Below, in pieces: positions 27,547 through 41,702 of a stretch of DNA of 64,000 nt. The number at the start of each line of letters is the position of its first letter. Positions within the stretch are counted from its first letter, which is position 1. Source of the DNA: a virus. Its lineage: Duplodnaviria > Caudoviricetes. The position numbers and the translations under genes are program-made. Below the pieces are notes generated by a model that was not told where the DNA came from, did not search any database, and saw only the letters and a list, made by a program, of their open reading frames with translations. The DNA lies in the IMG/VR virus record IMGVR_UViG_2974547928_000001, positions 1 through 64,000 of that record; one strand, given 5' to 3'.

Positions 27547-27624
27547 TGGGGTGACGGACGGGATTCGAACCCGCGTATTCCTGAATCACAATCAGGGGCA
27601 TTATCCAACTATGCTACCGACACA
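27547..27624 (-). tRNA. tRNA-His(GUG)
   Basis: Cloverleaf, C73, encoded CCA, U at -1. Confidence 0.9.
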
Positions 27625-27682
27625 TTTAAGAACCCTACTATAAGATTCTTAAATGTAGACGATAGCGTCTACAATATTAACT

Positions 27683-27757
27683 TGGTGCACCCTGTTGGTA
27701 ACGATCCAACCTCTCAGGCTCTTCAGGCTAGTGCTAATCCATCTCAGCTAAAGGTGC
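27683..27757 (-). tRNA. tRNA-Phe(GAA), atypical
   Basis: Loop CU-GAA-GA; T-loop AUCGUUA; mismatched anticodon stem; CCA. Confidence 0.8.
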
Positions 27758-27767
27758 TTTACTTATA

Positions 27768-28160
27768 CTAACGAATATCAATATCTGGAATAATTACAGA
27801 TGGTTTGAACACAACACGATAATGGTACTTACTTACGGATACTGGGTCAACCTGTTCCATGAAGAAAGTAACGTTATCGGATAAACCTAGCAGGTGCTTT
27901 TTATACTGATTATTACCTACCTTGCAAACTACGCCTAGAACATGCTCAGTACTGGTGTTGTCTCGAGTACACAAACCCTCAATTGTTAACATGTAATCAC
28001 CAGTAATGCCATTATAAAATACAATTCTTCGTTGTACTTCAAAGTTATCCGAGGACTTACTCAGGTTATGGGATGCTACGTCAGAGTCAGCAGGACACCC
28101 AGTTAATAACATTACTGATGATAGTACAATTGCCGACATAATTGCTTTTAAGCGTTTCAT
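27768..28160 (-). CDS. Conserved phage lipoprotein
   Basis: Lipobox LTGC; RRIVFYNGIT...LGLSDNVT. Confidence 0.8.
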   Translation of the reverse strand: MKRLKAIMSAIVLSSVMLLTGCPADSDVASHNLSKSSDNFEVQRRIVFYNGITGDYMLTIEGLCTRDNTSTEHVLGVVCKVGNNQYKKHLLGLSDNVTFFMEQVDPVSVSKYHYRVVFKPSVIIPDIDIR

Positions 28161-28163
28161 TTA

Positions 28164-28619
28164 TTAAAAGACCTCTAGTTCTTCGTTAAAATTGGTGGAG
28201 ATATCTTTACTACTAGTTAGTAGGTTGACTGGTAACTTGTACACCTTAGATAGGAATTCCTGTATTAAACCAGTATCACAGATTTGTTGCTCATGGTCGG
28301 TAAATTCTTCACCATCTAGCATATAAGTTGTATCCTTAAATGCTTCTGGTACTACTAATGGTAAGAACTCATAATCATGAAATGGTAATTCTGATACATT
28401 AATTCCAGTAGGGGTAATACCCTTTGACATCCAGTGCTTAATTAGATCACCGACTGTGTACCCCTCACCATCATAGCAAAATGCTGAGGGTGTCATAGTA
28501 ACGTCTAGTTCTGGGTGGGTAGGGCTTACTACTTTCCAACCCTCTTCCATAGTACACCCACAATCATCGCAATCCCAGTTATCTATAAGATGCGTTACTT
28601 TCACTTCTAGCTTTTTCAT
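28164..28619 (-). CDS. Hypothetical protein
   Basis: 151 aa, DCDDCG motif. Confidence 0.7.
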   Translation of the reverse strand: MKKLEVKVTHLIDNWDCDDCGCTMEEGWKVVSPTHPELDVTMTPSAFCYDGEGYTVGDLIKHWMSKGITPTGINVSELPFHDYEFLPLVVPEAFKDTTYMLDGEEFTDHEQQICDTGLIQEFLSKVYKLPVNLLTSSKDISTNFNEELEVF

Positions 28620-28642
28620 ATCGCTATTCTCTTTAATTAATT

Positions 28643-28735
28643 TGGAGGAGGAAAGGGGATTCGAACCCCTGGAACCTATCGCTAGATCCGTCTGATTTCA
28701 AGTCAGGTGCAATAATCCATCTCTGCCATTCCTCC
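28643..28735 (-). tRNA. tRNA-Ser(UGA)
   Basis: Long variable arm, CCA. Confidence 0.92.
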
Positions 28736-28741
28736 TTAATT

Positions 28742-28818
28742 TGGTCTCTGATGTAGGATTTGAACCTACGACCCCTCCGCCCCAAACGGAGTGCTCTACC
28801 AGCCTGAGCTAATCAGAG
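28742..28818 (-). tRNA. tRNA-Pro(UGG)
   Basis: C1-G72, cloverleaf, CCA. Confidence 0.93.
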
Positions 28819-29022
28819 TAATTCCCCTAGTTCAATATGTGCAAGTTCTAGTCGGTCTCCGCGTTCCCAATCGTCACACTGCCCATCTACTTTTTCATAA
28901 ATAAAATCTTGACGTTCTTGGCTAGTCATGCTTTGTAATTTATCAAACTCTTCGCTGGTTAGCCACACCTCAGATGTTACTTCAATAACTTCTGTTCCGT
29001 ACACTTTATATTTATTTAACAT
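28813..29022 (-). CDS. Small acidic protein; stop inside tRNA-Pro
   Basis: AGGA RBS; TGA at 28815-28813. Confidence 0.65.
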   Translation of the reverse strand: MLNKYKVYGTEVIEVTSEVWLTSEEFDKLQSMTSQERQDFIYEKVDGQCDDWERGDRLELAHIELGELL

Positions 29023-29041
29023 ATTGAATTTCCTAATTAAT

Positions 29042-29116
29042 TGGCGGTACTACGGGGAATCGAACCCCGATCTTCGGTGCGACAGACCACTATAATTGCC
29101 ATTATACTATAGTACC
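29042..29116 (-). tRNA. tRNA-Asp(GUC)
   Basis: Loop CU-GUC-GC, G73, CCA. Confidence 0.9.
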
Positions 29117-29121
29117 AAAAA

Positions 29122-29335
29122 ATGTATTTAAGAATCAAGCCCCTTCATCAAGACAATGCTTGAACAAGTCCTACAAACGTAGGTGCTGTAATTTATAGTG
29201 TGATCATGACTCACATTTAATATACAGGCTTCATCGTCGGTTTAGTAGTTTTTTCTAGAATTACTAGTTAAACCTTTCGTTATCTTAAGTCCAATACCTA
29301 AACTGAACGATATAGGGCTTGATTCTTAAATACAT
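29122..29335 (-). ncRNA. Putative structured RNA closed by a perfect 21-bp terminal stem
   Basis: ATGTATTTAAGAATCAAGCCC / GGGCTTGATTCTTAAATACAT; no ORF; directly after promoter 29358-29386. Confidence 0.6.
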
Positions 29336-29426
29336 CTTTTCCCAATTTCTGATAAATATTATATCAAGAAATTGGGATTTTTGCAAATACAATTTTAATC
29401 TTCTTTATTAACATAGTTAATAAAAG

Positions 29427-29522
29427 TGGAGGAAGAAGTGGGATTTGAACCCACACACCGACTTTCATCAGCTACTGACTGTTTAGCAAACAGTTCCCTT
29501 ACCAGATTAGGGTTATTCTTCC
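29427..29522 (-). tRNA. tRNA-Ser(GCU)
   Basis: Long variable arm, CCA. Confidence 0.9.
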
Positions 29523-29530
29523 GTATTAAT

Positions 29531-29605
29531 TGGCAGGGAGTACAGGGCTCGAACCTGTGATGCCAGTGTCAAAGACTGGAGTGCTACCAACTACACCAAC
29601 TCCCT
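29531..29605 (-). tRNA. tRNA-Gln(UUG)
   Basis: Loop CU-UUG-AC, G73, CCA. Confidence 0.9.
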
Positions 29606-29782
29606 CTTAGTACTCCAAGACTTATTAGTGGCTGAACTGACCGCCTTAGAGTACGTACTCTTTATATCTTCCGTTGGGGAATACCCTGTTAGTATATTTG
29701 CTACGATAGCAGAGTATACTACCGCTGATAATACACATAGCACAGTAAGAATACTAATTAAAATAGCCCCTGAAATACTCAT
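29591..29782 (-). CDS. Small membrane protein; stop inside tRNA-Gln
   Basis: N-terminal TM helix. Confidence 0.6.
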   Translation of the reverse strand: MSISGAILISILTVLCVLSAVVYSAIVANILTGYSPTEDIKSTYSKAVSSATNKSWSTKRELV

Positions 29783-29798
29783 AATTGCCCTTAAATAT

Positions 29799-30191
29799 TT
29801 ACCATACCTTTACTTTATTATCTAGCACAGATGGGTCTGAGAAATATTCGTTAGCCTTACAGGAGTAGAATTTGTCAAACTCAAAGGCGTCTTTATCCTC
29901 CCATAAGTGCTTCAGCAGGCTAGAATGGACTACCATATCGTCTCCTCTAATAGCGATATATAATACCTCCCCACCGTATTCTAGAGTATACATGGATACT
30001 TCTTTATCTACTTCTTCATAGAATTTTAACTGAGACGCTAATTCTTTTAATTTTAAGAGCTGAGCATCAAATCCTGCGTTTGGTTTACGTTTATGCGCTT
30101 CTTCTAGTAGTGGATACATACACTCTGCTAATTCTAACGCTGCTTTACTCATTTTATTGATGGACTGTTTAGCTCCTAGATAATCTGGCAT
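29799..30191 (-). CDS. Hypothetical protein
   Basis: GAGG RBS. Confidence 0.75.
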   Translation of the reverse strand: MPDYLGAKQSINKMSKAALELAECMYPLLEEAHKRKPNAGFDAQLLKLKELASQLKFYEEVDKEVSMYTLEYGGEVLYIAIRGDDMVVHSSLLKHLWEDKDAFEFDKFYSCKANEYFSDPSVLDNKVKVW

Positions 30192-30221
30192 AATATACCT
30201 CTTCTTGTTTAAGTTATAATT

Positions 30222-30298
30222 TGGTGCCCCTTGCTGGGTTCGAACCAGCGACCTACCGATTATGAGTCGGGTGCTCTACTCTTCTGAGCTAAAGGGGC
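30222..30298 (-). tRNA. tRNA(CAU), probably Ile2 (lysidine type)
   Basis: C4-G69 and C5-G68 TilS determinants; resembles enterobacterial ileX. Confidence 0.85.
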
Positions 30299-30671
30299 TA
30301 ATTTTAATAATATCCTGCAACATGCTTACAGTAAAGTAATCACTAGAACCAGAATGCATAGATACAAATAACACATAGTGAGGGTCGTATAAAACACCTG
30401 GAGTAGCTACTAAAATCATTTGGTACAGGTAGTTGAAAAATTCTAAAGACTCTTCACTAGTGGTACCATTAATCAACTCAATAGCATTATGCACGGTTAG
30501 TGTGGCATTACTATTCTTCAACTTATACAGTACCATTTCTTTTGTACTATCACTACATGCTTCTAGGTATTCCTCTGGAGTTTGAGTGAATTCAAAGTCC
30601 CATCCCTTCATCATTGCAATTTCTGTAATAACGTGATAAAAGAAAGCACCTACGTGTTTTTTGGTTTTCAT
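30276..30671 (-). CDS. Hypothetical protein; stop inside tRNA-Ile2
   Basis: 131 aa, AGGA RBS. Confidence 0.7.
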   Translation of the reverse strand: MKTKKHVGAFFYHVITEIAMMKGWDFEFTQTPEEYLEACSDSTKEMVLYKLKNSNATLTVHNAIELINGTTSEESLEFFNYLYQMILVATPGVLYDPHYVLFVSMHSGSSDYFTVSMLQDIIKISPFSSEE

Positions 30672-30689
30672 TAGCTATTTCCTATTGTT

Positions 30690-30766
30690 TGGTGGGGCAT
30701 GTAGGATTCGAACCTACGACATTCAGATTAAGAGTCTGCTACTCTAACCAACTGAGTTAATACCCC
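30690..30766 (-). tRNA. tRNA-Lys(CUU)
   Basis: Cloverleaf, CCA. Confidence 0.93.
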
Positions 30767-30772
30767 GTAATT

Positions 30773-30849
30773 TGGTGGGATGTCGGAGACTCGAACTCCG
30801 AACCTATCGCTTAAAAGGCGAGTGCTCTAACCAATTGAGCTAACACCCC
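30773..30849 (-). tRNA. tRNA-Lys(UUU)
   Basis: Cloverleaf, CCA. Confidence 0.93.
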
Positions 30850-30855
30850 GTTATA

Positions 30856-31377
30856 TTATCTATAAGTGTCTAATAATACTTTCTTAAACATAAGGAGTTC
30901 AGTATCGGACATATCGTCCAAATCTTTTGGGGACTGCATACCGCCATGATTAAACTTCTTACATAATTTAGCACCAGCGTTATCGGGATCACCTACCCAA
31001 ACAAATTTAAATGTTTGGTGATTATTAAGTAATCTCAATAAAGGCTTACTCATACTTGATCCTAGAACGGATACTGCATTTAACCCTACACTTTGTAAAG
31101 CTGTGGCTCTAAACACTGCTTCCGTAACAAATATTAAGGTATCTGCTGGGTTAACTGTATCCAAGCCCCAAAGTGCTGGTTCTGAACTCCAAGTAAAATA
31201 TCTTGAACCACTAGGAGTATCACCCTTCTTTGGTGCGTCTGGAGTGTACTGCTGAAATCCCACAAGTCTACCATCTGTTGCAAATAAGGGAAAGGTAGCT
31301 TTGTTATTATCTAGGTCTAACCAAACTTTGTGTTGATTAGTTACTTTCTTCTGTTTAAGAACATCTAAAACATTCAT
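30856..31377 (-). CDS. Small TOPRIM/primase-like protein
   Basis: FPL...GRLVGFQ, FVTE, GDPDNAG (DxD), KDLDD. Confidence 0.75.
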   Translation of the reverse strand: MNVLDVLKQKKVTNQHKVWLDLDNNKATFPLFATDGRLVGFQQYTPDAPKKGDTPSGSRYFTWSSEPALWGLDTVNPADTLIFVTEAVFRATALQSVGLNAVSVLGSSMSKPLLRLLNNHQTFKFVWVGDPDNAGAKLCKKFNHGGMQSPKDLDDMSDTELLMFKKVLLDTYR

Positions 31378-31463
31378 TTGAAAAGCTCCCTAACTTCAAT
31401 TTATAAATATATTATATTATAAAATAAGGAACTTTGCAAGTAAATTTTTAAATAATTAGCAAA

Positions 31464-31760
31464 CTAGACATATATCTTTTCTCCTACACCTACTATCTTT
31501 ATCTCAATAGCTACTAAGTAGTCAAAATAAGCTGCGCTCCAGAAGTTAGCAAACTTATGCATTGTGCCATCATCTAATGGCAGAAGAATTTCCCAATCAA
31601 TGCACTCTTCTTCAGCTTTTAATATTAGCTCTACAGCTTTACGACACTGGTCTAGGTTAGTCCACTCATATGGTAGCTCATCAGTAGCTTTATACTCTTC
31701 CAGGGAGCTACCTATCATGTACTCTAGCACTATCTTAAAACGAAGATCACTCATCGTCAA
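31464..31760 (-). CDS. Hypothetical protein
   Basis: 98-aa ORF. Confidence 0.7.
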   Translation of the reverse strand: MTMSDLRFKIVLEYMIGSSLEEYKATDELPYEWTNLDQCRKAVELILKAEEECIDWEILLPLDDGTMHKFANFWSAAYFDYLVAIEIKIVGVGEKIYV

Positions 31761-31929
31761 TAATCTCCCAATCTATTACTGTACAATCTAATGTTGAGGC
31801 TATAGTATCTAAAAGACTATAAACCTCACCCATCTCATACATAGATACTACACCTGGGGTTATTTTAGTAACTACTCTACCATCGCTATACTGGATAGTT
31901 ACTTTTAGCCTGCCTGTCATGGATATCAT
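31747..31929 (-). CDS. Small hypothetical protein
   Basis: Operon packing. Confidence 0.6.
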   Translation of the reverse strand: MISMTGRLKVTIQYSDGRVVTKITPGVVSMYEMGEVYSLLDTIASTLDCTVIDWEIIDDE

Positions 31930-32096
31930 TTCTTAATCCAGTCGAACTGCTCAGGATCGCCTAACCAACGACAGTAGTAAGAGTCTCCTGCATCAAAACC
32001 AATCGCATTGCACTTACACATCCAGAACTCTCCTCGGTATGTAAAGTGATGTTGGTCACCACACTTCTTACATCGTAAAATCTTATCAACTTTCAT
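31926..32096 (-). CDS. Small Cys-rich zinc-binding protein
   Basis: Hand-translated MKVDKILRCKKCGD...MCKCNAIGFDAG; AAGGA RBS. Confidence 0.6.
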   Translation of the reverse strand: MKVDKILRCKKCGDQHHFTYRGEFWMCKCNAIGFDAGDSYYCRWLGDPEQFDWIKK

Positions 32097-32115
32097 ACTG
32101 TTGTTCCTTTAAATT

Positions 32116-32191
32116 TGGCAGAGGTTGTAGGAATCGAACCCACATCGCAAGGTTTTGGAGACCTGCATAATAGCCATTATACTAAACCCCT
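32116..32191 (-). tRNA. tRNA-Trp(CCA)
   Basis: A1-U72, G73, loop CU-CCA-AA. Confidence 0.92.
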
Positions 32192-32502
32192 TTAATATCT
32201 TCTAGATGTTCCATAACGCATTCAATTACATTTTCTACTGGCAACGTCCCAAATTCGCTAGATAACGCACGGCGTAGTACAGCGAACTCTTCTTTAGATA
32301 GCATTGTAATTGTTGCTGAAATATCCCTTAGGTAGATTCCCTCATTGGTACCAAAGTAGATTTCTTCATCTGGTACAACATCAAGATTATCTATAGCTAG
32401 CATGGCTTCTTTGATATCTGATGCATCATCTAGTAATAACATTCCATCAATATCAAACTCATCCGCATAATTAGCACTCATAACAACAACGGCATATTTC
32501 AT
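32182..32502 (-). CDS. Acidic hypothetical protein; stop inside tRNA-Trp
   Basis: ANYADEFD...YFGTNE motif; own promoter. Confidence 0.75.
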   Translation of the reverse strand: MKYAVVVMSANYADEFDIDGMLLLDDASDIKEAMLAIDNLDVVPDEEIYFGTNEGIYLRDISATITMLSKEEFAVLRRALSSEFGTLPVENVIECVMEHLEDIKGV

Positions 32503-32577
32503 AATTAATTCCTTATCTTTAATTTATAAATATATTATATAATAAATTTAGGAACTTAGCAAGTGAATTTTTAAATT

Positions 32578-32653
32578 TGGTGCCAGCAATAGGAATTGAA
32601 CCCATGACCTGACGCTTACAAGGCGACTGCTCTACCTACTGAGCTATACTGGC
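32578..32653 (-). tRNA. tRNA-Thr(UGU)
   Basis: Cloverleaf, CCA. Confidence 0.92.
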
Positions 32654-32658
32654 AAAAT

Positions 32659-32781
32659 TGATGGTCACTAGGGATTTGAACCCTATCAGTAGGTGCGGAA
32701 TTACGGGGAACCACCTAACCTGGGAATCGAACCCAGACCTACCCTTTCCCTACCTTGGATTACGCCACATCCACGATGACC
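32659..32781 (-). ncRNA. tRNA-like RNA with acceptor-type stem and two T-arms
   Basis: GGUCAU/GUGACC stem; CUGGGUUCGAUUCCCAG and UAGGGUUCAAAUCCCUA; ends AUCA; no anticodon arm. Confidence 0.7.
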
Positions 32782-32786
32782 TTAAA

Positions 32787-33002
32787 CTATTTATAGTACT
32801 CTAGGATAGTATCCTTTACTATTTCAAATAACTCTGTGTCTTTTTCCGATACTACTAAATACTTCCTTACTTCGTTTTTTCCTACACTACGCCTAAATGA
32901 CTTGATTTTATCAATAAGGTGATTCAAAATAACTAAATCATCCTCGCTAAGAGCAGATACAATATCGCTGTTACTTAGTACTAGGAATTTATTGTTTTGC
33001 AT
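32787..33002 (-). CDS. Small hypothetical protein
   Basis: Start MQNNKF after TAAGG. Confidence 0.65.
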   Translation of the reverse strand: MQNNKFLVLSNSDIVSALSEDDLVILNHLIDKIKSFRRSVGKNEVRKYLVVSEKDTELFEIVKDTILEYYK

Positions 33003-33020
33003 ATAAGTTACCTTAATAAT

Positions 33021-33112
33021 TGGCAGAAGAAGTGGGAGTCGAACCCACAAGGCGTCTTTTGACACTCAGCTACTTTCCAAGCAGTTCCCGTCTCCAATCG
33101 GTTTGTTCTTCT
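33021..33112 (-). tRNA. tRNA-Ser(GGA)
   Basis: Long variable arm, G73, CCA. Confidence 0.85.
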
Positions 33113-33119
33113 ATAAATT

Positions 33120-33197
33120 TGGTGGGACTAGGGAGAGTCGAACTCCCAAGATACTAACACCTAAGGCTAGCGCGTATACCAATTCCGCCATAGTCCC
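33120..33197 (-). tRNA. tRNA-Leu(UAG), short variable region
   Basis: Loop CU-UAG-GU, CCA. Confidence 0.88.
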
Positions 33198-33202
33198 AAA
33201 TT

Positions 33203-33279
33203 TGGTGCCGAGGGCGGGGGTCGAACCCGCAGAACCTGCGTTTTAAGCACAGTACGTATGCCTATTCCGTCACCTCGGC
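33203..33279 (-). tRNA. tRNA-Leu(UAA), short variable region
   Basis: Loop CU-UAA-AA, CCA. Confidence 0.88.
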
Positions 33280-33536
33280 TATTTAATCTCTACTTCATTC
33301 CCCTCTGAATCCTCCCATACCTCTGGTTTACCATCAGCAAAATGAACTGAGTGTCTGCAGGGCAAGTAGATGAGTGCTCCCTTACCAGCTCCGTGATATA
33401 GTAGATCCTCTACTCGTTCCTCTCCACATACTTTGCACATGCCTTTTGGCTGCGTGAATACTTGTGGTTTAAGGCTACCATTAAATAGCTCTTCAACTAC
33501 TTTCCTAGCCCTTTCTTTCAATTCCTCATCATGCAT
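33279..33536 (-). CDS. Zinc-binding hypothetical protein
   Basis: Start MHDEE after AAGGA; CKVCG...PCRH. Confidence 0.65.
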   Translation of the reverse strand: MHDEELKERARKVVEELFNGSLKPQVFTQPKGMCKVCGEERVEDLLYHGAGKGALIYLPCRHSVHFADGKPEVWEDSEGNEVEIK

Positions 33537-33549
33537 AGTATGTTCCTTA

Positions 33550-33727
33550 TAGTTGATTAAAGCTATGTGTATATAGGCTTCACTTTGCGAGGAGATAAGC
33601 CTAACCTTTATGCTATATTGGGTCGCCAAACCCTCAGGGAGAACCACTTCCCATCTACTCACACATTTAGAGTCACATTCTTCTTGGCGGCTAGTTCTAG
33701 CGTTTATACACATACTTTAATCAACTA
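33550..33727 (-). ncRNA. Putative structured RNA closed by a ~23-bp terminal stem
   Basis: TAGTTGATTAAAG(C)TATGTGTATA / TATACACATACTTTAATCAACTA with internal hairpins. Confidence 0.55.
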
Positions 33728-33737
33728 AGTTAATTAA

Positions 33738-33874
33738 ATGTGGGTTCCCCTCTTCTCCCACTTAGTTAGTCAGACCGTTTAATGAGGCTAGCATGCCAAT
33801 TAAGGCGTCGGTTGGGACTTGCTAGTAAGTCTACCAACCCCGTTGTGCTTCATATAAGGTGACTATTCCTACAC
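33738..33874 (-). ncRNA. Putative ~135-nt structured RNA with complementary loops
   Basis: TAGTCA/TGACTA and GGTTGG-GACTT/AAGTC-CCAACC; loops CTAGCA and TGCTAG are complementary. Confidence 0.45.
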
Positions 33875-34228
33875 TCTACACGGTTGTTCTTTAAACCAAT
33901 TGATTTTTAAGCCAGTAGACTCAGTATATAATCTCTCTAGCTCTTTAAGCTCGTAGATAGGGTTTTCTGTTTCTAAATCCCATAAAAAGTCACTAAAGGA
34001 GTTCCAAGACTCAGCATCCATTACAGGAACACTTATCTCACTCCCGAACGTGCTAGAATCATGAACATCAACCCTACCACAGCAGTAATATGTTTCATAC
34101 TCTTTTCGTGTATAAAACGTTCCTGGGTTAACTGTGGACTCTACTTCTACCTCTGTAAATGGTACGTTATTATCTTCATACCACCCTACATTAACCACAC
34201 CCATCCAGTTTAAAAAGTATGTGCACAA
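33869..34228 (-). CDS. Hypothetical protein
   Basis: ORF in operon; start uncertain. Confidence 0.7.
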   Translation of the reverse strand: MCTYFLNWMGVVNVGWYEDNNVPFTEVEVESTVNPGTFYTRKEYETYYCCGRVDVHDSSTFGSEISVPVMDAESWNSFSDFLWDLETENPIYELKELERLYTESTGLKINWFKEQPCRV

Positions 34229-34461
34229 TCTAATGCCTCCAATCTATTCGATAGGTTCTTTACTTTTTCAAATTCGGAATCTGAAAGTGCGTGCCCCTCA
34301 ATAGCACATGAGGTTCTAGCATTCTCCATTATACTATCTGTATCGGGATACGCCCACACTGAATAAGTCTTGCCACTACACGTGGCGGCTCTGCCTATGA
34401 ATATGTATCCTTTATTTAGGAGAAAGCTATCCAAAGCTTTTGAACTCGATAATTTCATCAT
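34210..34461 (-). CDS. Hypothetical protein
   Basis: 83-aa ORF. Confidence 0.6.
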   Translation of the reverse strand: MMKLSSSKALDSFLLNKGYIFIGRAATCSGKTYSVWAYPDTDSIMENARTSCAIEGHALSDSEFEKVKNLSNRLEALDCAHTF

Positions 34462-34479
34462 AGCTAACTACTCTTTAAT

Positions 34480-34558
34480 TGGGGGAGATTGAGGGATTCG
34501 AACCCTCCTGGTATCCTCGGTGCAAGCGAGGTGAACACCCCAAGCATTCCCAATCCCC
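34480..34558 (-). tRNA. tRNA-Ala(UGC)
   Basis: G3-U70 pair; unusual C73; atypical D arm. Confidence 0.85.
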
Positions 34559-34564
34559 GTAAGT

Positions 34565-34641
34565 TGGTACACCCAACGGGATTCGAACCCGTGTTGCTTG
34601 CGTGAAAGGCAAGTGTCCTGACCTGGCTAGACGATAGGTGC
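34565..34641 (-). tRNA. tRNA-Glu(UUC)
   Basis: Loop CU-UUC-AC, CCA. Confidence 0.92.
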
Positions 34642-34648
34642 ATTAAAT

Positions 34649-34999
34649 TTATAGATATATGCTTACTAGATGTGCTACATCTTGCGATAGATTTTCTTCT
34701 GATTGTTTAAGATCTAAAGAGAATCTTCTAGAGATTCTAAGTATTTTCTCTGTAATATCTGAGATTGCTAATCTACGAATTTCAGCATACTGCTCTTCAT
34801 CGTACAAGTAATCAAAGTGGCTTTCTGGGAAATGTAGCTCATAAAGTTTACCACACGTAGTGCATTGACCGTTTATCCAAATTTCACAGCACCCGTCACA
34901 TCCATCTCCTTGATATAAGTAAGTATTGCCACCACAGTTTTCGCATATACACTGATGTTTTTCGTCTTTCTTAGCTCTAATTATTGCAGTAAGATTCAT
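34649..34999 (-). CDS. Cys-rich zinc-binding protein
   Basis: CENCG...CTTCG; own promoter. Confidence 0.7.
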   Translation of the reverse strand: MNLTAIIRAKKDEKHQCICENCGGNTYLYQGDGCDGCCEIWINGQCTTCGKLYELHFPESHFDYLYDEEQYAEIRRLAISDITEKILRISRRFSLDLKQSEENLSQDVAHLVSIYL

Positions 35000-35067
35000 T
35001 ACTTAATTCCTCATTTCAATTTATAGATATATTATAATTGAAATTCAGCGTTTTGGCAAGTAAATTT

Positions 35068-35550
35068 TTAAAATTTATATACGTTATCAAAGTTATGGAT
35101 AGCTACTTCCTTTACCCTTACCTCATCAAGTAGTTCTTTACACAGGTACTCTTCCTTATCTACTATAACTAGGCTTCTACGTATAGCTCTATTTGGTAGT
35201 TCAAATACTATAACGTTATCTGTTTCTAGAACCAAAGGCATTTGCGCAATATGAGCCTTGCAACGGGTTCTACAATACTCCGGAGAGTCCGACCAACCCA
35301 ATACCCACTCACCGTTAGGTGCTCGATATTTAGATACAAGAACTGAGGGCTTTGGTATGGAATAGTCACCTAGCCTTGGCTTTAACACAATATAGGCTTT
35401 ACCTATAGCCATTCTGGATGGGTCGGTTATACACTTAGCCTGTGGTACTTGGTATAAACTAATTAACTGACATCTACCAATATAATGCTCATCATGATCT
35501 GATGGACTATATACATAACCAGGTTGTAAAAAGTAATAGTAATCTTTCAT
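35068..35550 (-). CDS. Hypothetical protein
   Basis: PGYVYS..D.DEHYI...L..LY motif. Confidence 0.7.
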   Translation of the reverse strand: MKDYYYFLQPGYVYSPSDHDEHYIGRCQLISLYQVPQAKCITDPSRMAIGKAYIVLKPRLGDYSIPKPSVLVSKYRAPNGEWVLGWSDSPEYCRTRCKAHIAQMPLVLETDNVIVFELPNRAIRRSLVIVDKEEYLCKELLDEVRVKEVAIHNFDNVYKF

Positions 35551-35567
35551 AATACTGCCCTAAAAAT

Positions 35568-35643
35568 TGGCGCGGGCGGAGGGACTCGAACCCTCGCTGT
35601 ACGGGTTGGAAGCCCGACCGAATAGCCACTATCTTACGCACGC
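35568..35643 (-). tRNA. tRNA-Gly(UCC)
   Basis: GCG acceptor, loop CU-UCC-AA, CCA. Confidence 0.88.
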
Positions 35644-35918
35644 TTAAATAATTTTTTAATTCGTTCCCAAAAGGTTGGTTTTTTATTGCCAGTAGTAATA
35701 CTAGCTAATAGTTCTCTAGCTTTGGAGCAGTCAAGTCCAATATCTAACGGTTCAGGCTTTTTCTCAACCAATGTAAACTGTACCCCTTTGCGTTTAAGAT
35801 CATCTAAAGATACTGACTTATTGTCACAATCGTAGACAAACTGAATTCCTGTCTTTCTAGCTGTATAAAATTTATTTACTCTTCTTTTAACACATGGATG
35901 GTCTGTTACTAAAAACAT
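35634..35918 (-). CDS. Basic hypothetical protein; stop inside tRNA-Gly
   Basis: C-terminal amphipathic FWERIKKLF. Confidence 0.7.
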   Translation of the reverse strand: MFLVTDHPCVKRRVNKFYTARKTGIQFVYDCDNKSVSLDDLKRKGVQFTLVEKKPEPLDIGLDCSKARELLASITTGNKKPTFWERIKKLFKRA

Positions 35919-35919
35919 T

Positions 35920-36267
35920 TTATGCCCTATTTTGTATTAGTAGTACTCCGTAGTTACTAAGACTCTGCTTTGCTAACATCATCTTATCTACTGCGGAGGG
36001 GTTGTGGGAGTGAACGTACACCTCTCTTAGGTTTGGTAGTTCTCCACTATGGAGGAGCTCTTCTACAAGATTTAATACATCATTCCCTTCCTTATCTTCG
36101 CCTAGATCATTATCTAGTGAGATATGGGTAATATTATCACTACAGCCATCTAAAGCTGATAGTGCTTCGCTAAAGGTTTTCGCCCAAATAACCTTTTTAA
36201 ATACGTCTGTATCAGTAAAGTCTTTTGGGTCTCTTAAATCATCCAACCATAATAATAGTGGAAACAT
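35920..36267 (-). CDS. Cyclic-phosphate-processing receiver-domain-like protein
   Basis: LWLDDLR, ISLDNDLG, GNDVL, VHSHNP motifs. Confidence 0.75.
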   Translation of the reverse strand: MFPLLLWLDDLRDPKDFTDTDVFKKVIWAKTFSEALSALDGCSDNITHISLDNDLGEDKEGNDVLNLVEELLHSGELPNLREVYVHSHNPSAVDKMMLAKQSLSNYGVLLIQNRA

Positions 36268-36284
36268 ACTGTTACCTCAGTAAT

Positions 36285-36361
36285 TGGTAGCGAGTGCAGG
36301 AATCGAACCTACCTAAGCTGGCTTATGAGACCAGAGAGTTCCCCAGAACTTCTAACTCGCA
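36285..36361 (-). tRNA. tRNA-Met(CAU), probably initiator
   Basis: Unpaired U1xU72, CCA. Confidence 0.82.
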
Positions 36362-36367
36362 ATTAAT

Positions 36368-36452
36368 TGGCGGGTAGTGCAGGATTCGAACCTGCGTTGT
36401 TCTTTCGAACATGGATTAACAGTCCACCGCCAAACCGCTTGGCTAACTACCC
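36368..36452 (-). tRNA. tRNA-Asn(GUU) with long variable arm
   Basis: Loop CU-GUU-AA, G73; extra arm UGUUC-GAAA-GAACA. Confidence 0.88.
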
Positions 36453-36794
36453 TATAATCTGTATTAGAGGAACGTGTCCTTCAAAATAATAATCTTTTTG
36501 CGCTGTCATAACTTCTACACGATTGGCGTAGACTAGGAATGCGTCTTTATCCCCGATAAGCTCTGGACTCCATTGGTTCTCTAGACCATAACATGAGCAG
36601 TGACTACCGTGAACTTCATAATAAAGACCTGTTAAATTATCTTTAAAATATACTTCTGCGTACCCCTCATACTGTGGTTGGTTATATACTGCGTATATAA
36701 TAGTGATGTTTTCAAGAGAGCCCACTGGTAACTCAAATTGATCTTCTACATCACGAACATCTTTAAAATCACCTGCAAATATATTATCTAACAT
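36447..36794 (-). CDS. Conserved phage hypothetical protein; stop inside tRNA-Asn
   Basis: YEG.A...YEVHGSHCSCYGLENQW.PE motif. Confidence 0.8.
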   Translation of the reverse strand: MLDNIFAGDFKDVRDVEDQFELPVGSLENITIIYAVYNQPQYEGYAEVYFKDNLTGLYYEVHGSHCSCYGLENQWSPELIGDKDAFLVYANRVEVMTAQKDYYFEGHVPLIQIIG

Positions 36795-36817
36795 TGCTAG
36801 CTCCTAAATAAATTAAA

Positions 36818-36893
36818 TGGTACTTCGAACTGGGATCGAACCAGTGACCTCTCAGTTATCAGCCGAGTGCTCTACCTACTGAGCTATCGAAGT
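36818..36893 (-). tRNA. tRNA-Ile(GAU)
   Basis: Cloverleaf, CCA. Confidence 0.92.
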
Positions 36894-37061
36894 ATAAAAG
36901 CAACTTTGGGTGTTTCAGGGTTACTCGTTTGCACACACTACTATTAACCCTTGTTCGTATTAATGAGTGTGCCTAAGAGCGTACTCGTTGCTTTATGTAC
37001 TAGTAATACTTAGAGTATATGAATTTTGAAAGCCCTGCCGACTATATAGTATTACTAAATT

Positions 37062-37139
37062 TGGCATCGTAGAAGGGACTTGAACCCTCAGAGACCTACC
37101 TTGAAAGGGTAGTGACTTTACCAATTTGTCCACTACGAT
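37062..37139 (-). tRNA. Second tRNA-Glu(UUC)
   Basis: Loop CU-UUC-AA, G73, CCA. Confidence 0.88.
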
Positions 37140-37216
37140 ATAATACATTGTCGGGGAGTGCACAGAATGAAACTATTACTTCATTGATTGTGGACTTTAT
37201 TCCCCGACTTACAAGT

Positions 37217-37301
37217 TGGTGCAGGATCGTGGACTCGAACCACGGAACCCCGAGGGGTGGAGATTTACAGTCTCCTGTCATTGCCGCTAGACTAATCCTG
37301 C
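37217..37301 (-). tRNA. tRNA-Tyr(GUA)
   Basis: Long variable arm, CCA. Confidence 0.92.
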
Positions 37302-37306
37302 ATAAA

Positions 37307-37565
37307 AATAAATAAAGAATCTACTTTTGCGACTTACAAGTTGCCCGTAGTAGTAACCAGCTACTAAGATAGTATAGTTTACCTGATCGCCCCCTGAATA
37401 GTTACCTTTCGGTTAGGAATTCCCTCTGCCTTAATTTACAGAGAACCATAGCTGGTGTGGAATTGGTTTGTCCTATTACTATTAGGCTCTCCCGCAGTGC
37501 TCTTGTAAACACCCGTAACTTCGCAGTGACTTTTACTATCTCCAAAAGTAGATTTTTTATTTATT
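37307..37565 (-). ncRNA. Putative pseudoknotted RNA closed by a 23-bp terminal stem
   Basis: Arms 37307-37329 and 37543-37565 (1 mismatch); crossing helices; GAAA tetraloop; promoter 37590-37618. Confidence 0.6.
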
Positions 37566-37637
37566 CTTCCCTTAAACTTTATAATAGATATTATATTATA
37601 AATTTGAGCGTTTAGCAAGTAAAATTATAATATTTTA

Positions 37638-37714
37638 TGGTACGCCCTACAGGATTCGAACCTGTGACCCACAGCTTAGAAGGCTGTTGCTCTATCCAAC
37701 TGAGCTAAGGGCGC
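37638..37714 (-). tRNA. tRNA-Arg(UCU)
   Basis: argU-like cloverleaf, CCA. Confidence 0.94.
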
Positions 37715-37715
37715 A

Positions 37716-38470
37716 TCGTGTAGGGCAGATTAAAGAGATGCCCCAGCTCTACGGTTCCCTAAGGTAGTAGGGAATTACTAATGGGTTTTGGCTTTCTTCG
37801 TGTATAGTGCCTGCGATGCTTAATATATAAGCCCCAGTTATCTTGTTCTTATTAATATACTCCCGTAAACACTCTCATATATTAACAGTGTTACAACATA
37901 AGTGAGTTCGACACACCCATTTCGGGATTACACTACCACTTTCTCCAACATCCCATCATAGGCAGGGTGTCATGACTTATCCCTTACATGCCTAGGAAGC
38001 GTATGGGTTCCGCTATTAATGTTGGTGCCCCATGAAGTAGTATATCCCGAAATGGGAAGTGATCAGCTTCACATTTCCTAATTTAGTATTAGGGACTCAG
38101 TATAGTAGTTCGCGACCTAATATACTTATTCGTTGTTTTCTTTTGGTACCTTATTATCTGTTACTGGGAGTTGAACCCAGACGAGTAGATTTCGTTGCCA
38201 CTTTTATGCAGATAACTTAACGGATTTGCACCGCGATCCTCTGTCTACGCCTCTTGTACCAAGATACTTACCTTCTTCTGCATTAAACCGTAGTAAAATG
38301 CAAGGGTAGAGTTTACGGGGTGGTTAAGAGCCAAATTATACACTATGATAGTGAAACCCACAGATTCTATTCGTAATTAGCACAATGTACTTATATTACC
38401 AGCATAGTCTGCCTGCTGTACCCTGAAATCGTACTCTTAGAATTATTAATAATCCGTGTTCCGATTTAAT
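37716..38470 (-). ncRNA. Putative large (~750 nt) structured ncRNA
   Basis: No ORF of 60 aa or more; promoter 38477-38505; nested long-range helices; two T-loop hairpins. Confidence 0.62.
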
Positions 38471-38519
38471 ATAAATATTATATCAAAGTTTTTAGCATTT
38501 AGCAACTAAAAGTTTTCAG

Positions 38520-38804
38520 TTATTTGCTTTCGCATGTTAGGTGACGAACTTCTGATGCACCGAACCAATAACTATCACGACCATAAATAGTAGATCCTGG
38601 AGATATGCCACGGCGTGCAAAATATTCAGTCTCCCCAGTGACTCTAGAAACTCTTGATTTATCAAAGGTTAGTTTTTGATTATGACCACGATAGTCTATG
38701 TAACCAAAACAACGTACTGGTGTTGTTTCAGGTGGTACGTAACCAGTACAAGCGGCTACTGCTAGTGATAACGCAACCACTACACCTGCCAATAGTTTGT
38801 TCAT
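38520..38804 (-). CDS. Cor-like lipoprotein (possible superinfection exclusion)
   Basis: Lipobox VAAC, second Cys 13 residues later, size like Cor. Confidence 0.55.
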   Translation of the reverse strand: MNKLLAGVVVALSLAVAACTGYVPPETTPVRCFGYIDYRGHNQKLTFDKSRVSRVTGETEYFARRGISPGSTIYGRDSYWFGASEVRHLTCESK

Positions 38805-38805
38805 A

Positions 38806-39234
38806 TTAGTTCATCTCCATAAAGTCTTCAATAGCCTGTTTTGCGATCTTACCATCATACTGACCATTATAGTATTCTTTTAGAAACTTCATATGCGTTC
38901 CTAACGTGTCACCTGTAGAGTCAACAAGTACTTCTAGTAGATCATCGTATGTTAACTGTGATGGTAGAATCATATCATAAAGTTTCTGCTGTAAAGCAGG
39001 CATCTTGATTTCCGTGTCAATTTTACGTTCTCTAGCCTTAACTTTAGACTTTTCTAGGGCGCTGATTTGAGCTTTTGCGTACTTAATTAGCTGATCGTGC
39101 GATACAACTTCACCAAACTGGTACTGAAGTTCTGCTACCGCTGTGGATACAACTGTAACCCATTCTGTATCTTTTCTTAATCGTGCCTGTGCAATCTCAG
39201 CTCGAAGAAAGTCTAGCATATTTTCATCTTTCAT
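38806..39234 (-). CDS. YqeY/GatB-like tRNA-binding domain protein
   Basis: LPSQLT, G..MKFLKE.Y.GQYDGK.A motif. Confidence 0.7.
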   Translation of the reverse strand: MKDENMLDFLRAEIAQARLRKDTEWVTVVSTAVAELQYQFGEVVSHDQLIKYAKAQISALEKSKVKARERKIDTEIKMPALQQKLYDMILPSQLTYDDLLEVLVDSTGDTLGTHMKFLKEYYNGQYDGKIAKQAIEDFMEMN

Positions 39235-40590: not shown

Positions 40591-40881
40591 TTATAATCCG
40601 TAAGATTCAGCAACGCGCAACATAGTTGCATTACTTGTATCAATTGACGGAACTGCACGAGCCAAGAATTTGTAAATCTTAGTTAATCCAGAAAAACGAT
40701 CACTAACCTGAGTAATAGTTACTGTTCTACGCTCTTTTGGGTGTTTACTACCTAGCATTGCTCGGTCTGTACGACGCTTTAATGCTTTTAAATTTTGCAG
40801 ATGCTGTGTAAAATGGGCTTGCTCTTCTACCGACATATCCGCCATTACTTGTTCGATTTCTTGTTTAGTTAACTCTTCCAT
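40591..40881 (-). CDS. Hypothetical protein
   Basis: GAGG RBS, own promoter. Confidence 0.75.
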   Translation of the reverse strand: MEELTKQEIEQVMADMSVEEQAHFTQHLQNLKALKRRTDRAMLGSKHPKERRTVTITQVSDRFSGLTKIYKFLARAVPSIDTSNATMLRVAESYGL

Positions 40882-40943
40882 ATTTTAAGTCCTCTGTTTG
40901 TTTAATTTATAAATATTATACGTTAATTTAAGCGCTATGTCAA

Positions 40944-41702
40944 TTACAATTTTTCAATAATTAAGTGATTGAAGATTGTTTCGTTTAGGCTATCAAACAA
41001 TGCATCGTGCCAGTTTGGTACAAAGGATAGTTTAGCCATAAAGTCAGAAGATACTTTAGTTGCTAGTTCTCGCATAATAAAACTAGATGCTGAATTAGCA
41101 CCAGCCTCCGCTTCTTTTTCTAGAGAGAAATATTCACTATCTTCCATATTAGCTCGTGCTAATGCCTTTAAAGTTCTAGAGCTACCAACTTCGTTAAAGT
41201 GGTAAGGCATGCAATCAACTTTAGGGAATTCAGAAGCCATAAATGCTTCGTAAATAACCATATCGAAGTCCGGTCCGTTGCCTACTGCGTGAATCTTACC
41301 GTACTCGCTACGAGCTTCGGCTACCTGTTTAATAAATGTACTAATAAGGTATTCTAGATCATGCGTTTCTGTTGTGACAGTTACTACATCACCCATAGTA
41401 CCATTGTACATAAGCATACCAACTGGTTCTTCTAAAGTCCATCCCAAGGTTTGTGCGTCACGCACAGGCTCGGAAATCATGTCACTATCTAACCACCATT
41501 CTAATGTCTCGAAACCTACATGATAACCACGAAGCGTTTGTAAGTGTGCAGGCAGACGAACATATAATGTAGCCATCTCCCCAGTAGGTGTCATTAGCAC
41601 GAATGCAAAGGACGTCATGTTTACAATTTTACCATCTAAGGATGCGTCTTTTGGACGTGATAATGTTTCAATATCTAAACCTAATAGTGTTAGTTGTTTC
41701 AT
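40944..41702 (-). CDS. DEDDh 3'-5' exonuclease-like protein
   Basis: LDIETL, GNGPDFD, HDALFD. Confidence 0.78.
   Translation of the reverse strand: MKQLTLLGLDIETLSRPKDASLDGKIVNMTSFAFVLMTPTGEMATLYVRLPAHLQTLRGYHVGFETLEWWLDSDMISEPVRDAQTLGWTLEEPVGMLMYNGTMGDVVTVTTETHDLEYLISTFIKQVAEARSEYGKIHAVGNGPDFDMVIYEAFMASEFPKVDCMPYHFNEVGSSRTLKALARANMEDSEYFSLEKEAEAGANSASSFIMRELATKVSSDFMAKLSFVPNWHDALFDSLNETIFNHLIIEKL

Follow-up and report, generated by a model that had tools for sequence, protein, structure and literature searches.

What occupies the ~755 bases, poor in open reading frames (ORFs), that separate a promoter from the first transfer RNA (tRNA) gene of a phage tRNA cluster? The question is raised by positions 37716-38470 of a 64,000-nt stretch of Caudoviricetes DNA (IMG/VR record IMGVR_UViG_2974547928_000001), hereafter the window. 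The source is a T5-like Proteus phage, and the nearest records are of Novosibvirus (Demerecviridae). ARAGORN found 23 tRNA genes in the window, every one on the minus strand (27547-37714), and the element lies directly upstream of tRNA-Arg on that strand. An earlier note, made from the window sequence, had proposed a promoter-driven, highly structured non-coding RNA of ~750 nt at the head of this cluster and had left its family membership to a search. The RNA was borne out, on the minus strand and at ~700 nt, and the search was indeed required: its result was T5 RNAX. We conclude that the stretch very probably encodes the Novosibvirus/Priunavirus form of RNAX, a large stable non-coding RNA of Demerecviridae.

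The annotation of RNAX in T5 and DT57C was already known. In the T5 record AY543070, rnaX is a 'stable RNA with unknown functions' that spans 40848-41566, flanked by T5.081 and tRNA-Arg and preceded by promoter P16-17. DT57C carries a misc_RNA rnaX of 636 nt with the same annotation, between the T5.081 homologue and tRNA-Arg(UCU). The window element occupies the same slot: it shares the strand of the phrog_1460 (T5.081) gene and of the tRNA cluster and lies between the two, ahead of tRNA-Arg(UCU), with its own early promoter and one extra 94-aa ORF. Blastn with DT57C rnaX matched 521 phage records (264 from Salmonella, 133 from Escherichia, 81 from Klebsiella and others), in which the same piece is variously annotated as tRNA-OTHER, -Sec, -Ser or -Arg; in another T5 record (AY587007) the inner tRNA look-alike is marked as a tRNA pseudogene. 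RNAX has no Rfam family. No paper describing it was found in the literature searched, which excludes old scans and subscription journals; early T5 work by the Ksenzenko group may contain a description.

Blastn gave no link between the window element and the T5 and DT57C rnaX records. A profile hidden Markov model (HMM), built from the core of 15 T5-type sequences only, was searched against the 64-kb window using nhmmer. It gave a single significant match, at 37917-37807 on the minus strand (E=1.8e-8), and the next matches were the T-arms of true tRNAs, with E of at least 0.057. A colinear series of blocks is common to the window and the T5-type sequences: the M1 hairpin CAGCRGGCNKACUAYGCUG; M2, AGARUCNGUGRGUU; M3, CGUAAACUCU; the run GUGUSGAA-N-UCACUUAUGU-NN-UAACACUG; AAGAA-NNN-GAUAACUG; the hairpin GCUUAU...AUAAGC; UCGC and then a hairpin; and the tail AAAACC. 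With T5 RNAX itself the element shares M3, GUGUSGAA, helix X, hairpin H, the UCGC-hairpin, the AAACC tail and an AU-rich hairpin with loop UUUACGRGAG, and the core helices covary across types. The 5' blocks M1 and M2 are kept in the window type, My1 and AAS21, in contrast to T5 and DT57C, which are without them. On this identification the locus is a further RNAX member, rearranged and in two added genera, and not a new kind of element. RNAX would then extend to phages of Proteus and Providencia, rearranged to a form that blastn cannot link to T5.

The covarying core and the extent of the RNA

Close relatives of the element are few. Blastn with it returned only 12 phage records: eight are Proteus phages at 94.7-97.9% identity, and four come from two Providencia Priunavirus phages that are ~70% identical over the middle of the element. 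A 21-mer search of IMG/VR for further window-type homologues added only PSTCR5, PM135 and PR1. A metagenome scan with the window-type pattern gave 0 loci, and one with the family-wide pattern gave 11, all T5-type.

The promoter that the earlier note had read as TTGCTA-17-TATAAT is present at the expected place, with a TG extension. All seven window-type sequences agree exactly in its -10 box and in the 9 bases transcribed first, and transcription probably starts near 38470. At the equivalent position Priunavirus has TTGACA/TTGCCA-17-TATAAT, with an identical -10 box; an unannotated gap of equal size follows, and then two coding sequences and tRNA-Arg.

Folding of the single sequence gave minimum free energy (MFE) z-scores of -2.53 (minus strand) and -2.11 (plus strand); on either strand, none of 20 shuffles was as stable. 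By our estimate ~17 complementary 7-mers arise by chance in 755 nt, so that word pairs of 6-7 nt are expected, and only a 13-mer pair and, marginally, a 9-mer pair exceed chance. The better-than-chance evidence in these sequences is comparative and not that of the single sequence. With four sequences, RNAalifold predicted 106 pairs, 24 of them changed on both sides; with the seven window-type sequences it predicted 153, of which 25 were changed on both sides. The RNA strand is the minus strand: one-sided changes yield G-U pairs on it, and helix X and the acceptor-like stem hold many G-U pairs.

The comparison was extended to 19 sequences, 4 of the window type and 15 of the T5 type, from 17 clusters of 47 fetched sequences; L034, an apparent chance match among 34 IMG/VR loci, was dropped, and three loci found by blastn were added. 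Pairs were counted directly against a structure that we specified, with shuffling and sliding of partners as controls. In the family-wide 3' core, 88.8% of 627 cells were paired compared to 74.6% in shuffles (0 of 500 reached the observed value) and 29-39% with partners slid, and 22 of 35 pairs were changed on both sides compared to 12.4 in shuffles. Helix X was 98.7% paired, with 8 of 12 pairs compensatory, and hairpin H was 100% paired.

The closing helix pairs the tail with the bases that immediately precede GUGUCGAA, and it encloses this junction, helix X and two hairpins. Its four central pairs were 100% paired. One column has G-C in 13 of the sequences, U-A in 4 and A-U in 2, and another has U-A in 13, G-C in 4 and C-G in 2; window-type sequences have AUGGG/CCCAU, most T5 types GUGG/CCAC, and My1 UACGG/CCGUA. 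Covariation is also visible by eye in the hairpin that follows UCGC (GGCAG/CUGCC, GACAG/CUGUC, GCUAGG/CCUAGC and GCUG/CAGC, with GGC/GCC in the window). For the 3' 145 nt of the window, the MFE and centroid structures coincide and reproduce the consensus core structure exactly. Covariation supports a predicted RNAX core of ~110-150 nt that is universal to the family.

The earlier note had the RNA end at tRNA-Arg +1, and here it has to be corrected: the conserved body stops 66 nt short of the tRNA. The intervening spacer varies: VTCCBPA139 has 17 nt duplicated there, and RP7 and PM135, which keep the element whole through GAAAGCCAAAACCCAT, have an extra hairpin and an insert of ~377 nt (~415 nt by another count) near that point. 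This variation, together with the two coding sequences of Priunavirus, places the end of the conserved RNA at 37781. The insert (1726-2102 in RP7, L003) holds a 110-aa ORF at 1767-2099 of no known family and is the same in PM135 (L006). The extra hairpin of these two phages lies inside the P-z loop and resembles a hairpin of PSTCR5.

The 5' domain, the insertion and displaced modules

From six complementary word pairs the earlier note had built a fully nested model. All six pairs are where it had placed them, and the nested model fails. GGCAGA/TCTGCC is rejected as an outer helix: the first word is the conserved M1 loop, and the second is not found in RP7 and has no equivalent in PR1, My1 or AAS21. 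The M2-tail pairing TGGGTTT/AAACCCA (UGGGUUU/AAACCCA in the RNA) is doubtful and may form at most in Novosibvirus: TGGGTTT is absent in Priunavirus, the tail AAACCCAU covaries instead with AUGGGU at 37920-37915, and T5 and DT57C are without the M2 block yet keep the tail. GTGTATA/TATACAC is contradicted by RP7 and PL1, where the 3' word is altered and the 5' word unchanged. The helix CCAACAT/ATGTTGG, in contrast, is supported by compensatory changes. In CCAACAUU/GAUGUUGG, columns 473/545 are UA in 3 sequences, CG in 2, AU in 1 and GU in 1, and columns 474/544 are AU in 4 and GC in 1, with two other cells; changes on both sides occur even among Proteus phages that are 95-98% identical. The pair of 13 nt (the 13-bp helix) is conserved but shows no variation.

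The pair CCCGUAAAC/GUUUACGGG survives in part. As CCCGTAAAC/GTTTACGGG it extends to 12 nt at 92% complementarity and is probably a real contact, but it crosses the covarying helix X and is not a nested helix, so that only a pseudoknot or loop contact is possible. Between M3 and the loop of the AU-rich hairpin (37862-37870) the window has a complementarity of -17.2 kcal/mol, which 0 of 300 shuffled loops equalled. In My1, DU_PP_V, L023, L013 and L014 it is -9.8 to -11.0 kcal/mol (0-3 of 300 shuffles), and there is one C-G to U-A exchange between the window and this group. Spurious M3 calls in L018 and L027 stand outside the 12 sequences with true M3. No covariation was seen by eye in the M3/pre-M4 and M2/M3 pairings. 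Further upstream, the M1 loop is conserved across the family, and My1, DU_PP_V and AAS21 have the same hairpin.

The distance from M3 to the core (M4) varies from 28 to 402 nt across lineages. The window form fills it with an insertion that includes a T-arm-like hairpin and that T5 RNAX does not have. A profile of the insertion searched with nhmmer against T5-type loci gave nothing below E ~0.9 and only T-arm likeness (E ~1-3), and blastn against T5-type domains gave weak colinear bits (E 0.5-2). Both T-loop hairpins that the earlier note had seen in 38143-38262 are present. The subdomain has an unremarkable folding energy (z=-0.72), and its GUAGA/UCUAC words are present and never vary. The T-arm-like hairpin matches the tRNA T-arm consensus and covaries likewise: its stem is CTGGG/CCCAG in the window, Proteus phage 1 and RP7, CTAGG/CCTAG in VTCCBPA139, TACGG/CCGTA in PL1 and GAGG/CCTC in both Priunavirus phages. 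The second hairpin is absent from PL1, PSTCR5 and PR1. PL1 has, in place of the entire subdomain, a shorter version like that of Priunavirus, in which the T-arm hairpin is the only part kept. Here (~520-600 of Proteus phage vB_PMC-PL1, L064) PL1 is ~98% identical to the window, yet its T-arm subdomain is Priunavirus-like, which suggests recombination between genera inside the RNA gene.

In T5 types a cloverleaf tRNA look-alike sits at the tip of helix X. ARAGORN read its anticodon in 8 loci as act, aga, tag, tca, act and cga, with no call in two; as its anticodon is not conserved, the look-alike does not act as a conserved decoder. Nor do all members of the family have it: in GSW6 and a Stitch-like phage the tip bears another hairpin in place of the cloverleaf. 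The AU-rich hairpin stands at the 3' end in T5 types, with loop UUUACGAGAG, and at the tip of helix X in the window. The window loop, GAGAGUGUUUACGGGAG, is nearly the same as that of the T5-type 3'-end hairpin, AAGAGUUUUUACGAGAG, and the hairpin module appears to have changed place between lineages. Modules of the RNA (tRNA look-alike, kissing hairpin, large domains) appear to have been moved or swapped between lineages.

Table 1. Positions of the predicted RNA, its parts and its neighbours in the window
Feature	Position	Strand	Basis and remarks
tRNA-Arg(tct)	37638-37714	minus	first tRNA gene in transcription order (ARAGORN; Rfam)
Variable spacer, 66 nt, with hairpin 37755-37774	37715-37780	minus	outside conserved RNA
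Conserved RNA body, ~690 nt, probable window-type RNAX homologue	37781-38470	minus	alignments; conservation stops after GAAAGCCAAAACCCAT at 37781
Family-wide 3' core	37781-37920	minus	T5-type HMM match; covariation counts; fold
Closing helix AUGGGU/ACCCAU	37915-37920/37781-37786	minus	covariation
Hairpin P-z	37809-37816/37790-37799	minus	part of 3' core
Hairpin H	37818-37832	minus	part of 3' core
Helix X, long, bulged	37893-37906/37832-37846	minus	covariation
Apical AU-rich hairpin, 34 nt	37852-37885	minus	tip of helix X in window
Junction GUGUCGAA	37907-37914	minus	part of 3' core
13-bp helix CCCAUUUCGGGAU	38044-38056 with 37916-37928	minus	100% complementary; invariant in 7/7
Lineage-specific insertion, ~385 nt, M3 to core	37929-38307	minus	largest among lineages
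Helix CCAACAUU/GAUGUUGG and enclosed part	37945-38025 (38025-38018 with 37952-37945)	minus	compensatory changes
Subdomain closed by UUGGUAC/GUACCAA, two T-loop hairpins	38143-38262	minus	3' strand varies only to G-U (GUACUAA, GUAUCAA)
T-arm-like hairpin CUGGG-UUCAACU-CCCAG	38164-38180	minus	four stem versions, constant loop UUCRANU
Second T-loop-like hairpin CGG-UGCAAAU-CCG	38221-38233	minus	identical in 4/7 window-type sequences; no covariation
M3 block CCCGUAAACUCU	38308-38319	minus	in 12/19 representatives
M2 block AUAGAAUCUGUGGGUUU, includes TGGGTTT	38354-38370	minus	T5-type form AGA(A/G)UCNGUGRGUU
Hairpin GUAAU...AUUAC	38373-38399	minus	4/5 outer pairs changed on both sides, Novosibvirus vs Priunavirus (columns 82-86/104-108)
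M1 hairpin CAGCA-GGCAGACUA-UGCUG	38400-38418	minus	one pair A-U in 5, G-C in 2 sequences
5' hairpin AAAUCG...CGAUUU	38426-38467	minus	6 pairs kept in 7/7; one A-U to G-U, no compensatory change
Sigma-70 type promoter TTGCTA-17-TGaTATAAT	38477-38505	minus	10/12 matches, TG extension; consensus match alone
94-aa ORF, lipoprotein-like N-terminus	38520-38804	minus	between promoter side of element and phrog_1460 gene
phrog_1460 gene, 142 aa	38806-39234	minus	PHROG match E=1.8e-29, label 'tRNA amidotransferase'

Alternative explanations, expression and possible roles

Several observations weigh against the identification as RNAX or against parts of the structure. The window form has a 34-nt AU-rich hairpin where T5 types carry the cloverleaf, and it is without the ~330-nt 3' domain that follows the AAACC tail in T5 types. 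The folding z-scores of the single sequence are modest, and support for the 5' half and the insertion comes from only two genera, in effect three lineages. No variation occurs in the 13-bp helix, which shares AUGGG with the closing helix and so competes with it. The M3-loop contact is strong in 7 of the 12 true-M3 sequences and weak in both Priunavirus phages and in the Epseptimavirus-type sequences L022, L030 and L015. The 'stable RNA' status of T5 RNAX comes from GenBank notes. Public runs hold part of the stretch (20 of 24 listed), and the element is covered by metatranscriptome contigs of four RNA-library runs, X5, X8 and X9 of a single study and X18. Coverage by X9 and X18 is fragmentary. 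In X5 and X8 a relative's contig covers all 9 kb evenly, the flanking genes as well as the element, and allows no inference on transcription, ends or level.

The earlier note had likened the element to the giant RNAs GOLLD and ROOL and had named these, OLE, RNase P and transfer-messenger RNA (tmRNA) for a search. Rfam 15 at the gathering score gave 21 matches in the whole window, all tRNA. At E<=10 over 37500-38700 on both strands it gave four, of which a single one fell inside the element, on the opposite strand: an archaeal S15 leader (22.1 bits, cut-off 42.2). None of the named families, and no group I or II intron, matched the element even at E<=10. ARAGORN found no tmRNA, and neither ARAGORN nor Rfam RF00005 at E<=10 found a tRNA inside 37716-38470. 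ROOL is known from other hosts. According to PMC12286853, GOLLD is a giant, phage-borne structured RNA beside tRNA genes with a conserved and a variable part, and ROOL is a ~600-700-nt RNA of phages and prophages that has predicted pseudoknots and no known protein partner and is non-essential; both are phage- or prophage-encoded, often near tRNA islands, and form RNA-only cages of unknown function. Size, phage origin and adjacency to a tRNA cluster are thus similar, yet the element has no covariance-model match to GOLLD or ROOL, its blocks are unrelated to those of GOLLD, and they match T5 RNAX instead, which makes membership of either family extremely improbable. The same degree of doubt applies to the view that the region encodes small proteins, such as the 38-aa and 53-aa ORFs that RP7 annotates. 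RP7 has three annotated hypothetical proteins under the match, and the window has ORFs of 20-53 aa. As the earlier note had held, no ORF inside 37716-38470 is long (at most 53 aa on the plus and 38 aa on the minus strand). None is conserved between genera: the long ORFs of PSTCR5 (106 and 140 aa) and PR1 (49, 92 and 49 aa) are antisense only and mutually unlike. Indels are not multiples of three, and changes keep base pairs and not codons.

Decayed tRNA genes and spacer, debris with chance hairpins, would account for the T-arm-like hairpins, for the tRNA pseudogene label of AY587007 and the tRNA-OTHER, -Sec, -Ser and -Arg annotations elsewhere, and for complements of 6-7 nt. However, blocks from the transcription start onwards are conserved across genera that share only ~70% identity, many helices show compensatory covariation, the core is retained in the 521 phage records, and the promoter is its own and conserved. 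We consider debris very improbable. The element might also be a cis-acting leader of the tRNA operon, a platform for processing or antitermination with no role after cleavage; in favour of this, the window, T5 and DT57C all have the element immediately ahead of tRNA-Arg and no intervening terminator. Adjacency to the tRNA is not conserved, however: two coding sequences intervene in Priunavirus and the 110-aa ORF in RP7 and PM135, and a coding sequence follows the element in rutana, Kpn24-P2 and GSW6. In the window tRNA-Arg is itself followed by a second promoter, and a conserved fold of ~700 nt far exceeds the needs of known leaders. This explanation is improbable, if somewhat less so than debris.

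With RNAX as the preferred reading, a sigma-70 promoter of its own would drive transcription of the RNA on the minus strand. A promoter and terminator scan found no terminator-like site between this promoter and tRNA-Arg, and co-transcription with tRNA-Arg is therefore probable; RNase P, cutting at the 5' end of the tRNA, would then probably release the RNA. Promoter-like sites were not enriched in the scan (5 observed, 5.0 expected from shuffles). Immediately after tRNA-Arg, at 37590-37623 on the minus strand, lies a second promoter-like site TTGCTA-17-TATAAT that closely resembles the element promoter, and the tRNA cluster is seemingly split into several promoter-headed units. T5 records likewise annotate repeated early promoters.

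The T5 st0 record is without the RNAX core motif, and its similarity to the wild type resumes only inside T5.081, so RNAX is dispensable for laboratory growth. According to PMC11464382, deletions in the T5 tRNA region are non-essential, the deletion variants tested were sensitive to the PARIS defence, and a T5 tRNA neutralises PARIS. RNAX is a candidate non-protein player in this dispensable region of T5-like phages. It might act in trans as a folded scaffold whose tRNA-like and T-loop elements engage tRNA-binding factors, an idea that is our best guess but is held at low confidence. Candidate partners would be host tRNA-directed defence nucleases, tRNA maturation enzymes or the neighbouring phrog_1460 protein, and the idea would fit the position in a dispensable tRNA and anti-defence island. 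Just as speculative is the proposal that RNAX forms a third class of giant tRNA-island phage RNAs beside GOLLD and ROOL: a modular scaffold with a compact four-helix core that acts as a homo-oligomeric RNA assembly or as a mimic of the tRNA elbow. Its interchangeable modules would be the tRNA look-alike or T-loop hairpins, the M3-kissing hairpin and lineage-specific domains at differing places, and an elbow mimic could titrate host tRNA-directed defence nucleases or tRNA enzymes. If this were true, the window form would be a natural 'permuted' variant that reveals the essential modules. In any case the lineages offer a natural set of variants for structural study of a large phage RNA that is GOLLD/ROOL-like in size and context.

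Upstream genes and further observations

Tblastn with the 142-aa product of the phrog_1460 gene matched 103 phage records, and the match in DT57C is the T5.081 homologue just upstream of rnaX. A YqeY-like identity is suggested by the PHROG label, the AAS21 annotation and one weak homologue with PF09424; it is unconfirmed, with 0 Pfam matches and nothing near the cut-offs in NCBIfam. A search of PDB sequences gave one unrelated match (E=0.027), and the AlphaFold single-sequence model was unusable (predicted local distance difference test score, pLDDT, 52.9). The 94-aa ORF has no PHROG or Pfam match, and tblastn with it gave 0 matches among 50,697 phage records. It falls in an indel, 38516-38829, and the GenBank Proteus relatives and three RNA-library assemblies skip 38515-38830. 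Priunavirus has an unrelated ORF, also of 94 aa, at the same spot.

Some Epseptimavirus records under the DT57C rnaX match (e.g. NC_111751.1 and PP926508.1) annotate an HNH or homing endonuclease under or beside RNAX, and mobile endonuclease genes may target the locus. The T5 st0 record (AY692264, L017) annotates five further small 'stable RNAs' between tRNA genes at 30397-33086 (RNAI, RNA1, RNA2H, RNAIV and rna2). The tRNA region of the window has several ORF-poor gaps of 0.6-1.3 kb, such as 30849-32116 and 33279-34480, which may hold counterparts of these small RNAs.

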